A stretch of DNA of 64,000 bases from Tagaea sp. (GTDB lineage: Bacteria > Pseudomonadota > Alphaproteobacteria > CACIAM-22H2): assembly GCA_044224405.1 (NCBI GenBank), contig JBGAKN010000001.1:416973-480972 (forward strand). The letters are read 5' to 3'. Below, one piece after another: positions 26,710 through 30,610 of the stretch (positions are counted from its first letter, which is position 1; each line of letters begins with the position of its first letter). Below the pieces are notes generated by a model. That model worked only from the letters and a program-made list of their open reading frames with translations, was not told the DNA's origin and searched no databases. The position numbers and the translations under genes were made by a program.

Positions 26710-27594
26710 ATGGCCCATCTGGACGACACCGACACCCAGCGCGCCAACACGATCTATATCCGCCGCGCGATGAAGGCGCCGCTGCTGGCGCGCGAGCACG
26801 AGCTTGAACTCGCGCGGCGCTGGCGCGACACCGGCGACCAGACGGCGCTGGCGGAGCTGGTCGGCGCCTATGGCCGCATGGCGGTATCGCTGGCGCTGCG
26901 CTTCCGCCATTACGGCCTGCCTGTCGGCGACCTGATCCAGGAGGGCAATATCGGGCTGATGCAGGCGGCCCAGCGCTTCGAGCCGTCGCGCGACGTGCGC
27001 TTCTCGACCTACGCGCAATGGTGGATCCGCGCGGCGATCCAGGATTTCGTGCTGCGGAACTGGTCGATCGTGCGCACCGGAACGACGGCCGCGCACAAGA
27101 CGCTGTTCTTCAACCTTCGCCGCCTGCGCGCGCGCCTCGACGATCCGTCTTCCGAGCGGATGAGCGACGCCCAGCGCGACACGATCGCGCGCACGCTCAA
27201 GGTGAGTGTGCCCGACGTGGCCGAGATGGAAGGGCGGCTTGCCGCCGGCGACCGCTCGCTCGACGCGAAGATCGGCCCCGAGGGCGAAAGCGACTGGGCC
27301 GCCACGCTCGTCGATCCGAACCCGACGCCTGAGGACGCGACGATCGGGATGCGCGGGGCGAGCGCGCGCGTGCGGCTGGTGCGTGCGGCGCTGGGCGAAC
27401 TCGATCCGCGAGAACGCACGGTGATCGAGGCCCGCCAGCTCGCCGAGGAAAGCGTGACGCTGGAATCGCTCGGCACGAAGCTCGGCATTTCCAAGGAGCG
27501 CGTGCGCCAGATCGAGCACCGCGCGATGGGCAAGCTCAAGGCGGCACTGGTCCGCCGCGTGAGCAACCCGTCGGATCTTTTCGCGGGCGCCTGA
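26710..27594 (+). CDS. rpoH: RNA polymerase sigma-32 factor
   Basis: Sigma-70 regions 2-4 plus an RpoH-box-like QRFEPSRDVRFSTYAQWWIRAAIQDF segment; 294 aa. Confidence 0.9.
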   Translation: MAHLDDTDTQRANTIYIRRAMKAPLLAREHELELARRWRDTGDQTALAELVGAYGRMAVSLALRFRHYGLPVGDLIQEGNIGLMQAAQRFEPSRDVRFSTYAQWWIRAAIQDFVLRNWSIVRTGTTAAHKTLFFNLRRLRARLDDPSSERMSDAQRDTIARTLKVSVPDVAEMEGRLAAGDRSLDAKIGPEGESDWAATLVDPNPTPEDATIGMRGASARVRLVRAALGELDPRERTVIEARQLAEESVTLESLGTKLGISKERVRQIEHRAMGKLKAALVRRVSNPSDLFAGA

Positions 27595-27601
27595 AGCGCC
27601 G

Positions 27602-28651
27602 TCAGATCGCTTCCAGCTCGGTCCAGGCCTGGTCGGCGAGGCCGCGCAGGCGCTGGCTGTCGATGCGGCCGGCGAAGGCGTAGGCGTAGCCGCCGCGATG
27701 CCAGTGGACGACATTCACGCCCTGGCGCAGGTCGGCGCGCGGGCTCTGCTCGCGCCGTTCGGAGAACGCGATGACGAGGCCGACGACCTCGTTCGCGCCG
27801 TTCTTGTAGAGAAGCTGCGCCGCGGGCTTGCCGCCGACGACCAGCATGCGCCCGCCCTGCAGCTCGAAGCCCTGCGACGTGAGATCGGGCAGCGCCAGAT
27901 TGCGGTTGAGCTTGGCGCCGAACCACTTGCCCAGTTCCGGCATGTCCTCGGTCGTGAAGTCGACGAGCAGGCGGCCTTCGCTGGCCTGCGTCGCTTCCGC
28001 GACATTGTAGAAGCCCGCGACATTGTCGAGCCAACGGTCGGTCGAGGCGAGCTCGAGCCCGCCGATCTGCGGCTGGATGCGCCCGGTGAACACGCCGCCG
28101 GCCCCCAGCACGAGGAAGAGCGCCACCGACGCGGCGACCGCCCAGACGAGCGGGCGGCGGATGCTGCCGGCCCGGGGCTTCATCGGGACGACGTTGCCGG
28201 CCTTGGTCTCGCGCACCGCCGCGACGAGGCGTGCAGGCACCGGCTCGTCCACGACGGGGGCGAGTGCGGCGCGCGCCAGCATGGCGGTGCGCCGGAAAAT
28301 CTCGATGCGGTTGCGCACGCGGCGGTCGGCGAGGGCGCCCCGCGCCACGCGCGCGGCGGCAGCGCCTTCGAGCGCGCCGTCGGCATAGGCCATCAATGTC
28401 TCGTCGTCGAACGCGCGCGCGGGCGCCACGGGCGCCTTCATCACGGCATCGACCAGCCGCTGCGGCACGGGCTCGAGCAGCACCTCGTTCATCGCGGCAT
28501 GCGCCATCGCGGCCATGCGGCGGAACATCGTCACGCGCGCGGCAACCTCGGCATCGTTCGCGAGAGCGGCTTCGACCGCGCGCAATTCCGCCGGCTCGGC
28601 CGTGCCGTCGGCGTAGCGCATCAGGGTCTCGTCGTCGAAGCGCGGTGACAT
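27602..28651 (-). CDS. Membrane anti-sigma factor (cognate of the upstream ECF sigma) with tandemly duplicated N-terminal cytoplasmic domain
   Basis: FDDETLMRYADG.. and FDDETLMAYADG.. repeats, single TM helix (PLVWAVAASVALFLVLG), periplasmic C-domain; ATG 14 nt after sigma-factor stop. Confidence 0.75.
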   Translation of the reverse strand: MSPRFDDETLMRYADGTAEPAELRAVEAALANDAEVAARVTMFRRMAAMAHAAMNEVLLEPVPQRLVDAVMKAPVAPARAFDDETLMAYADGALEGAAAARVARGALADRRVRNRIEIFRRTAMLARAALAPVVDEPVPARLVAAVRETKAGNVVPMKPRAGSIRRPLVWAVAASVALFLVLGAGGVFTGRIQPQIGGLELASTDRWLDNVAGFYNVAEATQASEGRLLVDFTTEDMPELGKWFGAKLNRNLALPDLTSQGFELQGGRMLVVGGKPAAQLLYKNGANEVVGLVIAFSERREQSPRADLRQGVNVVHWHRGGYAYAFAGRIDSQRLRGLADQAWTELEAI

Positions 28652-28665
28652 TCCTTGCAGTCCCT

Positions 28666-29253
28666 CTATTCGGCGGGCGAGGCGAGCGAGGAGCCCGTTT
28701 CGCCCAGCATGCGTGCCAGTGCGGTCCGTGCCCGCGCGAGACGGCTCATCACCGTCCCGATCGGGATGTCCAAGGCGGCGGCAGCCTCCTTGTAGCTCTG
28801 CCCCTCGACGCACACGAGCGTCAGCACCGTGCGCTGCTCGTCGGGCAGCTTCGCCATCGCCGCGCGCACGGCCTCGTAGGTCATGTGCGCCTCGATGCCG
28901 CGCCCGCCGTCGAAGGCGAGCTCGTCTTCCACCATGTCCGCGTCGATCCGGCCTTCGCCGGTGCGGACCTTGTTGGCGCGCCGGTCGTCCAGATAGATCG
29001 TCTGGACGATGCGGAACATCCAGCTGTCGAGCCGCGTACCGGGCTGGTACTGGTCGATCCGGGTCAGCGCGCGTTCGCACGCGGCCTGCACCAGATCGTC
29101 GGCCTGGTCGGGGGCGCCTGCGAGTCCGCGTGCGAAACGCCGCAGGCGCGGCAGCAGGGCCACCATCTCTTCGCGGATCTGGCGGATGGTGTCGTCGTTC
29201 ACGACGCTCTCCGGGGCGATCCGGTCCGGCAACCAGCCGTCCGACAGGAGCAC
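28666..29253 (-). CDS. ECF-family RNA polymerase sigma factor
   Basis: Sigma-70 region 2 (DDLVQAACERAL) and region 4 (VLTLVCVEGQSYKEAAAALDIPIGTVMSRLARAR); GTG start at 29253 or in-frame GTG near 29202. Confidence 0.85.
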   Translation of the reverse strand: MLLSDGWLPDRIAPESVVNDDTIRQIREEMVALLPRLRRFARGLAGAPDQADDLVQAACERALTRIDQYQPGTRLDSWMFRIVQTIYLDDRRANKVRTGEGRIDADMVEDELAFDGGRGIEAHMTYEAVRAAMAKLPDEQRTVLTLVCVEGQSYKEAAAALDIPIGTVMSRLARARTALARMLGETGSSLASPAE

Positions 29254-29440
29254 AACGACGGCGTTTCGGGATTATTCGGCACGGTTACGGCTTCCTTGGG
29301 ACTGTTGCCATTGCGCCACAGCTTCGCGGCCGGGACGATCGCGCAAATAAACCCCAACAGCGTTGAAAAGTCGAGGAAAGCCGGGGTTTTAGCGCGGCCC
29401 GGCCAAAGGGCGGCCAAGGCGAACGTCTCCGGTGCTATTT

Positions 29441-29508: not shown

Positions 29509-29967
29509 ATGCGCAGACTTTTCTTCATTCTCCTTGCCGCCGTCGGCATCGCCGCGCTTTCGGCTGCCGTCGGTACCGCGCGCGCTGGCGAGGATCGCGA
29601 ACTCGTCAAGATGCCGGCGATGATGCAGGAGCACATGCTTGCCAGCATGCGCGATCACCTGATGACGCTCGGCGAGATTTTCGCCGACCTGACAGTCGAG
29701 AATTTCGATGCGGCCGCCAAGGCGGCCGAGACGCGGCTCGGGCTCAGCTCGTTCGCGCTGCACGATTCGGCGCACATGGCGGCGTTCATGCCCAAGCCGA
29801 TGCAGGATGCCGGAACCGAGCTGCACAAGGCCGCCAGCCGCTTCGCGATCGTCGCGCAGGAGGCCGATGTCGAACGCTCTTACGAGTCGATGAAGAAGCT
29901 GAACGGCGCACTCGCCGAAATGGTCTCGAGCTGCAATGCCTGCCATGTCGGCTACCGAATCCGGTAG
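29509..29967 (+). CDS. cycP: Cytochrome c' (class II c-type cytochrome), periplasmic
   Basis: Signal peptide MRRLFFILLAAVGIAALSAAVGTARA, four-helix length (152 aa), single C-terminal CNACH haem motif; RBS GGAGG 8 nt upstream. Confidence 0.8.
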   Translation: MRRLFFILLAAVGIAALSAAVGTARAGEDRELVKMPAMMQEHMLASMRDHLMTLGEIFADLTVENFDAAAKAAETRLGLSSFALHDSAHMAAFMPKPMQDAGTELHKAASRFAIVAQEADVERSYESMKKLNGALAEMVSSCNACHVGYRIR

Positions 29968-30610
29968 CTCCCGCGCGAAGGGAGCCACCCCGGCCGCCGC
30001 CCCCTGGATCGCGGCGGCTGGGGTGGCCGCATCGCGTCGCAGCCTCGATGCGGGCCAGCCCTTGTTTCGGCAGGGCGACGCGACATTCGGGATCTTCGCC
30101 GTCGAGAGCGGGCGCCTACGCCTGCTCCGGCACGCCCGCGACGGCAGCGATTGCGTCCTGCATGTCGCCGCGCGCGGCGACACGTTCGCCGAAGCGGCTC
30201 TGTTCTCGCCGCACTATCATTGCGACGCCATCGCAGACATTCCCTCGCGCGTCACGGTCTTTCCCAAGGACGCGCTTCTCGCCGCGTTCGCGGCGGATAC
30301 GGATCTTGCCGCGGCCTTCATGGCGCACCTGGCGCGCCAGGTGCAGGCGCTGCGCGCGCGCGTGGAGATGCGCAACATCCGGTCGGCGGACGAGCGCGTG
30401 ATGCGATACCTCGCCCTTCGGGCAATTGACGGCGCGGCGACGGTGACGTTCGACCGGCCGTTGCGCGACGTGGCCGGCGAAATCGGTCTCGCGCATGAAT
30501 CGTTCTACCGCGCGCTGAAGATACTGGAGACGCGCGGCGCGATCGGGCGGAACGGGCGGAAAATCCGGCTGCTTGGCAGCCCCGACACACGACGGCGCAC
30601 CAGAACCTAG
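29936..30610 (+). CDS. Crp/Fnr-family transcriptional regulator (Dnr/NnrR-like), overlapping the end of cycP
   Basis: cNMP-binding-like beta-roll then C-terminal HTH (..VAGEIGLAHESFYRALKILE..); no N-terminal Cys cluster. Confidence 0.8.
   Translation: MPAMSATESGSSRAKGATPAAAPWIAAAGVAASRRSLDAGQPLFRQGDATFGIFAVESGRLRLLRHARDGSDCVLHVAARGDTFAEAALFSPHYHCDAIADIPSRVTVFPKDALLAAFAADTDLAAAFMAHLARQVQALRARVEMRNIRSADERVMRYLALRAIDGAATVTFDRPLRDVAGEIGLAHESFYRALKILETRGAIGRNGRKIRLLGSPDTRRRTRT

Follow-up and report, generated by a model that had tools for sequence, protein, structure and literature searches.

Can one membrane anti-sigma factor carry two complete sigma-binding domains, and if so, what might the second one do? 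Pairs of extracytoplasmic function (ECF) sigma and anti-sigma factors belong to the commonest signalling modules of bacteria, serve as orthogonal switches in synthetic biology and are generally treated as 1:1 partners. The question is raised by an anti-sigma factor gene in a 64,000-nucleotide stretch of the Tagaea sp. contig JBGAKN010000001.1 (hereafter the window). The gene lies at 27602..28651 on the minus strand, exactly as originally delimited, and its parts are described below on the same strand. Its open reading frame (ORF) is intact, with an ATG at 28651 and the stop codon at 27602-27604, and encodes a protein of 349 amino acids that starts with MSPRFDDETLMRYADG. On the same strand, 14 nt separate it from the end of an ECF sigma factor gene upstream, an arrangement kept in every locus for which the upstream region is available. 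Together with the class I anti-sigma domain (ASD) described below, this position bears out the identification of the product as an anti-sigma factor, and the source annotations of the 117 homologues found read anti-sigma factor or RsiW.

Two anti-sigma domains on one polypeptide

The original prediction held that the sigma-binding domain of this protein is duplicated internally in tandem. This was borne out by the comparison of the protein with itself, in which amino acids 5-70 align with amino acids 81-146 without gaps at 52% identity (34/66; BLASTP E 6e-17). When the second half was shuffled 5000 times, none of the shuffled sequences reached the Smith-Waterman score of 146 (32.4 +/- 6.1 in shuffles, maximum 70; z 18.7), so that the self-similarity of the region is highly significant. 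The two units had been placed at about amino acids 4-75 and 79-150; these stretches are indeed homologous, but the units are better delimited as amino acids 5-72 (repeat 1, R1; 28436..28639) and 81-148 (repeat 2, R2; 28208..28411). Between them lies a short Pro/Ala-rich linker (amino acids 73-80, APVAPARA; 28412..28435), whose length is 4-9 residues overall and only about 4 among the members of the Tagaea subclade. A profile of the unit matches the anti-sigma factor twice over its full length (positions 1-67), and does the same in every member of the clade with the double form.

AlphaFold2 (AF2), supplied with a 62-sequence alignment, predicts two equivalent four-helix units; in each of them, helices 1-3 score above 90 in the predicted local distance difference test (pLDDT). 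The helices comprise amino acids 7-15, 20-30, 34-59 and 64-72 in R1 and 83-90, 96-108, 110-134 and 140-148 in R2. The model of amino acids 1-151 reached a mean pLDDT of 84.7 with a predicted TM-score (pTM) of 0.40, which indicates two confident bundles whose mutual orientation is undefined. Each unit consists of a three-helix bundle followed by a fourth helix, the arrangement by which class I ASDs are recognised structurally. Each repeat is a complete non-zinc class I ASD and not a fragment, and what had been described as a sigma-binding domain can be assigned to the cytoplasmic class I ASDs. The HxxxCxxC motif that defines the zinc-binding anti-sigma (ZAS) subclass is absent from both units in the sequence of the window protein, which offers no Cys and no suitably placed His there, and the protein falls outside this subclass.

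Matches to existing domain models were weaker. The window protein scored 20.4 bits on Pfam zf-HC2, below the gathering threshold of 22.2, and the NCBIfam anti-sigma models matched both units with scores below their cut-offs. In a set of 34 units, zf-HC2 matched over helices 1-2 in 19 (E <= 0.01) and Pfam NepR (PF18557) over helices 3-4 in 11. The top PDB sequence match of the unit profile was likewise a NepR structure (2lfw_B; E 0.026, a weak match), reached via the ...EPVPxRL... segment. This NepR-like segment, fRxxAxLARAAxxxVLxEPVPxRL, spans helices 3-4 of R2 and R1 (28208-28290 and 28436-28520, respectively).

At the DNA level, a local similarity between the repeats had been reported, and it is real: copy A (28596..28639, encoding FDDETLMRYADGTAE) and copy B (28368..28411, encoding FDDETLMAYADGALE) are 82% identical over 44 nt. 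These positions correct the ones first given, and the start-to-start period is 228 bp, or 76 codons, instead of about 237 bp. The recent origin that the DNA similarity had seemed to imply is ruled out. Over the full 204-nt unit the DNA identity drops to 56% (48.5% for third codon positions), and the two repeats have reached saturation at synonymous sites. Where R1 and R2 encode the same amino acid (34 codon pairs), the codon is identical in 18 cases, whereas 20 are expected from the codon usage of the gene (GC content at third codon positions 91%). Furthermore, Tandem Repeats Finder detected no 228-bp array at the repeat. The local similarity is thus explained by the conserved peptide FDDETLMxYADG in combination with a GC-rich codon usage, and the duplication is ancient and fixed in a clade whose members have diverged to about 53% identity.

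Downstream of the two ASDs, a single transmembrane helix can be read directly from the sequence (amino acids 168-188, LVWAVAASVALFLVLGAGGVF; 28088..28150). The full AF2 model contains this helix with low pLDDT at amino acids 167-183 and continues into an alpha/beta domain. Basic residues ahead of the helix indicate that the N-terminus, and with it both repeats, is cytoplasmic. The alpha/beta domain (amino acids 196-349; 27605..28066) is periplasmic, has an RseB/MucB-like fold and belongs to no Pfam family.

Distribution and age of the duplication

Orthologues with one and with two domains both exist. The double form comprises about 32 protein clusters (P0001-P0032) of 343-360 amino acids that cover the query completely at 53-92% identity. 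The single form (P0034-P0068; L016-L033) measures 271-312 amino acids, covers about 76% of the query at 41-51% identity and is short by exactly one unit. A local hidden Markov model of the unit found two full-length matches, spaced by 71-79 amino acids, in every protein of the double group and one in all others. Apart from the number of ASDs, the two forms share their setting, from the sigma factor and a promoter of the type GGAATA-N15-CGTT to the membrane helix and the periplasmic domain. Wherever the upstream region is available, exactly one ECF sigma factor gene directly precedes the anti-sigma gene; its product shows 80-98% identity among the loci of the double clade and 62-75% between the two clades. 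The sigma2 and sigma4 regions are almost identical between the two clades, with one fixed difference in the core.

In a collection of genomes dereplicated by species, 12 carry the double form (L004-L015). Its hosts are Tagaea sp., 'Azospirillum sp.', one genome labelled 'Asaia bogorensis' and several unclassified metagenome-assembled genomes (MAGs) assigned to Rhodospirillales, Rhodospirillaceae, Alphaproteobacteria or Proteobacteria. The 18 loci that follow (L016-L033) come without exception from alphaproteobacterial MAGs, and the majority of them carry the single form. The window protein itself occurs in identical form on two independent Logan assemblies, and its nearest relative on a large contig (L001, 4.45 Mb) is 92% identical. 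The duplication is neither private to the window genome nor universal in the family, and universality was one of the two findings, besides missing self-similarity, that the original prediction had named as speaking against it.

The same prediction had called the architecture uncommon, and in addition to the single-domain orthologues a scan with the unit profile agrees with this. Among 1.84 billion representative proteins, 5127 carried the unit; two of them matched at E <= 1e-30, both from the double clade, and none of the best 150 of the 5127 matches showed two full units outside that clade. Five further candidates (P0137, P0167, P0172, P0200 and P0224) were rejected as two-ASD proteins and classed as single-ASD proteins, as their second stretches were fragments of only 5-10 bits. 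Separately, we observed an unrelated soluble protein of 370 amino acids (P0123; L084 3096-4208, JGI metagenome 3300002042) with five partial ASD-like units. It is itself an internal duplication of a super-unit of about 160 amino acids and is encoded just upstream of a 177-amino-acid Sigma70_r2 gene, which indicates that multi-ASD-like proteins occur elsewhere.

A neighbour-joining tree of 98 units separates three groups, R1, R2 and the single units, with bootstrap values of 402, 357 and 493 of 500, respectively. Mean identity is 62-67% within these groups, 47% between R1 and R2, 44% between R1 and the single units and 45% between R2 and the single units. A tree of the periplasmic domain only likewise splits the double from the single proteins in 295 of 300 bootstraps. 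The trees, and the saturated synonymous sites noted above, indicate that the domain was duplicated internally once, long ago, in the ancestor from which a clade of Rhodospirillales related to Tagaea descends. As R1 and R2 are equally distant from the single units, neither resembles a fast-evolving, neofunctionalised copy.

Judged from substitution patterns, both copies are kept under similar purifying selection. Nei-Gojobori dN/dS values in 13 double-clade genes were about 0.2-0.34 for R1 and about 0.2-0.35 for R2, with higher values in the membrane linker and lower values in the periplasmic domain. Column entropy was 0.90 in R1, 1.02 in R2 and 0.92 in single units, and the values for individual helices were similar across the three classes. 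Nine unit positions are invariant in R1, R2 and single units alike (D2, D11, G12, R40, A49, E56, P59, R61 and L62). The best-conserved segment of all is the helix-3/4 linker plus helix 4 of R1 (EPVPqRL.DAv).

Possible roles of the two domains

The explanation that we favour, and to which we give about an even chance of being right, is that both ASDs bind the same cognate ECF sigma factor, so that each anti-sigma molecule would offer two sites. In class I ASDs, helix 1 contacts sigma region 4, whereas helix 4 contacts regions 2.1/2.2 and provides most of the specificity, as concluded from co-crystal and covariation analyses (PMC7406223). Both repeats of the window protein keep the corresponding elements, namely the acidic/DG motif of helix 1 and the sigma2-binding EPVPxRL motif of helix 3/helix 4. 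Since both interfaces are retained in each repeat, the repeats have diverged equally, the sigma factor is unchanged and the modules are predicted to be independent, binding of the cognate sigma by both appears to be the most economical reading. The observed conservation also speaks more for a pair of working sigma-binding modules than for a degenerate decoy, the other role that had been considered at the outset.

A 2:1 stoichiometry of sigma and anti-sigma is put forward more tentatively. A precedent for two sigma factors on one membrane anti-sigma assembly exists in the DdvA2-DdvS2 dimer (PMC11506125). Two ASDs would double the sequestering capacity relative to the sigma produced from the same operon and might thereby tighten the OFF state. 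A single signal-triggered proteolytic event at the membrane would then release two sigma molecules, which could result in a steeper switch with higher gain. With the same reserve, it may be speculated that the protein acts as a stoichiometric amplifier that holds two sigmas, or one sigma plus a second partner of R1, with two transcription factors set free by one proteolysis.

Several points weigh against two sites for the same sigma. The linker of 4-9 residues might sterically hinder two sigma factors of about 20 kDa side by side, and the sigma-ASD covariation is uninformative as to which ASD is contacted, the sigma being nearly invariant. The unit trees are simple neighbour-joining trees on 68 columns, in which the R1 and R2 groups are 71-80% supported. 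Finally, R1 has private invariant residues (R12, N55 and D68) and is missing the GEL motif after helix 1.

These peculiarities of R1 could also be read as subfunctionalisation, in which only the membrane-proximal R2 would sequester the cognate sigma. R1 would then serve another partner, which might be an unlinked second ECF sigma, a sigma mimic or anti-anti-sigma resembling PhyR, or some other regulator; or else it would act as a decoy in cis that competes with the sigma and tunes the threshold of its release. R2 occupies the position of the single ASD in the orthologues, the class-specific invariants of R1 (MRYADG instead of MAYxDG, N55, D68, the loss of GEL) are found neither in R2 nor in single ASDs, and the short linker may block the simultaneous binding of two sigmas. 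In addition, helix 3-4 resembles NepR, a module that switches between sigma and the sigma-like domain of PhyR. However, R1 retains all family-invariant residues, its sigma2-binding helix-4 motif is the best-conserved segment of all, and R1 and R2 have diverged equally from single ASDs. Nor did a candidate for a second partner emerge in the window or beside the operon in any locus: tblastn of the 64-kb window revealed no second ECF sigma, ASD or PhyR-like target, and no PhyR-like gene lies near the operon in the loci compared. The cis-decoy variant would moreover need packing of R1 against R2, which AF2 does not predict confidently (pTM 0.40). On balance, we consider subfunctionalisation rather unlikely.

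Still less probable, in our view, is a bivalent clamp in which the two ASDs cooperate on one sigma at 1:1, raising affinity and lowering leak. One bundle might sit on sigma4 while helix 4 of the other unit binds sigma2, or the two units might act by avidity and rebinding. Class I ASDs do engage sigma4 through helix 1-3 and sigma2 through helix 4, two interfaces that are separable (PMC7406223), and the short linker holds the units close. Co-transcription of the genes, which lie 14 nt apart, suggests roughly similar synthesis of sigma and anti-sigma. Yet both interfaces are intact in each unit, and the relaxed selection expected on the unused halves is not apparent from the per-helix entropies, which are similar instead. 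A last reading is that the additional domain drifts neutrally or decays as a remnant, stems from an error of assembly or annotation, or is not translated. It has nothing in its favour except the a priori frequency of such artefacts; it is very improbable and effectively refuted by the intact ORF in about 32 independent protein clusters and 12 species-level genomes, the R1 dN/dS of 0.2-0.34, the AF2 pLDDT above 90 and the identical protein on two independent Logan assemblies.

The operon, its neighbours and related systems

The sigma factor gene lies at 28666..29202 on the minus strand and encodes 178 amino acids from a GTG at 29202. The protein matches Pfam Sigma70_r2 and Sigma70_r4_2 as well as NCBIfam sigma70-ECF, this superfamily model being the only NCBIfam sigma model matched above its cut-off. 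It is recognisable as an ECF sigma by its composition of sigma2 and sigma4 domains only, its length close to 180 amino acids, a TIGR02937 score above cut-off and the conserved promoter motif upstream, which is of the GGAAC..CGT type usual for such sigma factors. A longer ORF would start at 29253; as this start overlaps the -10 element (29254-29257) and is probably located upstream of the transcription start, the promoter position argues for the GTG at 29202. The orthologue in L001 has also been called at 178 amino acids, and the conserved start region GTGAACGA is visible among the loci. At its other end, the sigma (window 28666-28690) terminates in ...SLASPAE in double-ASD loci and in a tail with ...NVVRLG in single-ASD loci. 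This tail resembles a GNVV-x-(F/L/M) motif that is conserved in the anti-sigma factors of both clades, in the stretch that connects the last ASD to the membrane helix (amino acids 151-158; window 28178-28201).

The putative autoregulated ECF-type promoter (29254..29277, minus strand) reads GAATAA-N14-CGTT, the family consensus being GGAATA-N15-CGTT, and is the single match to this motif in the window. As the motif recurs at the same position in every locus of L001-L033, with one domain or two, for which the region upstream of the sigma gene is available, a positively autoregulated operon is indicated. Its GGAATA -35 element presumably resembles that of ECF26-type promoters. In more distant families, additional copies of the motif were observed nearby, some of them divergent. 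Neither an intrinsic terminator nor a sigma-70-type promoter was found between 27300 and 29500.

An RpoH-like sigma-70 family gene (26710-27594, plus strand) converges on the anti-sigma gene, with 7 nt between the stop codons, and the transcripts of the two genes probably overlap. This convergent arrangement is conserved in L001-L003, with no recognisable intrinsic terminator between the genes. Divergent from the sigma promoter, a gene at 29509-29967 (plus strand) encodes a small secreted protein that matches cytochrome c' weakly and has a haem motif, CNACH, at its C-terminus. It is overlapped by 32 nt by the gene for a Crp/Fnr-type regulator (29936-30610, plus strand). This pair is present in L002 and not in the 92%-identical L001, and it is therefore probably not part of a conserved regulon. 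A 276-amino-acid protein without assigned function is also encoded among the operon neighbours.

Judged by its structural and genomic features, the system follows the standard mode of an ECF sigma paired with a class I anti-sigma that spans the membrane once, as in RslA, RsiW, RskA and RseA/MucA. In contrast to these, the window protein carries two tandem ASDs without HxxxCxxC. It is the tandem ASD that differs from standard class I anti-sigmas, whereas fold and regulatory logic are already known. NepR, which serves EcfG as anti-sigma factor in the general stress response of Alphaproteobacteria, shares part of the unit consensus (fRxxAxxxRxAxxxxxxEPVPxRL compared to ...EEQVPDEML in solved NepR), although these matches are weak. 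NepR is short and soluble, lacks helices 1-2, the transmembrane helix and the periplasmic domain, and works with PhyR. The window protein is a 349-amino-acid membrane protein whose resemblance is limited to the helix 3-4 motif, and it is not a NepR family member. Its sigma factor scored above the cut-off on Pfam PhyR_sigma2. This score and the NepR-like motif may reflect an evolutionary link of the family to the EcfG/NepR system.

RseB and MucB exist as separate, free periplasmic proteins and bind the anti-sigma in trans, whereas in the window protein a similar fold is fused in cis at 13-15% identity, which places it outside their family. DdvA-DdvS resembles the proposed assembly in that two ASDs, and therefore two sigmas, are brought together at the membrane; however, DdvA dimerises chains with a single ASD (PMC11506125), whereas the window protein has both ASDs on one polypeptide. 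In targeted searches of the survey of 10,930 class I ASD sequences (ASDI) and of the ECF re-classification, no mention of tandem or duplicated ASDs was found. The survey pipeline kept only the best-scoring ASD envelope per protein, so that tandem cases would be missed. A search of full-text literature returned nothing relevant on such ASDs, which is not proof, as most subscription journals were outside its scope.

The scope of the finding is modest either way, as a single clade is concerned and neither the fold nor the regulatory logic is new. If the protein does act as an amplifier, this would be an architecture of ECF signalling that neither the ASDI survey nor the re-classification describes. 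As the double and the single clade share the same sigma, promoter and sensor domain, they provide a natural paired comparison of valency against leakiness, threshold and gain. Should the 2:1 complex prove true, tandem ASDs would offer an easy rule for designing ECF switches that are tighter or steeper; should it not, R1 would mark another partner.
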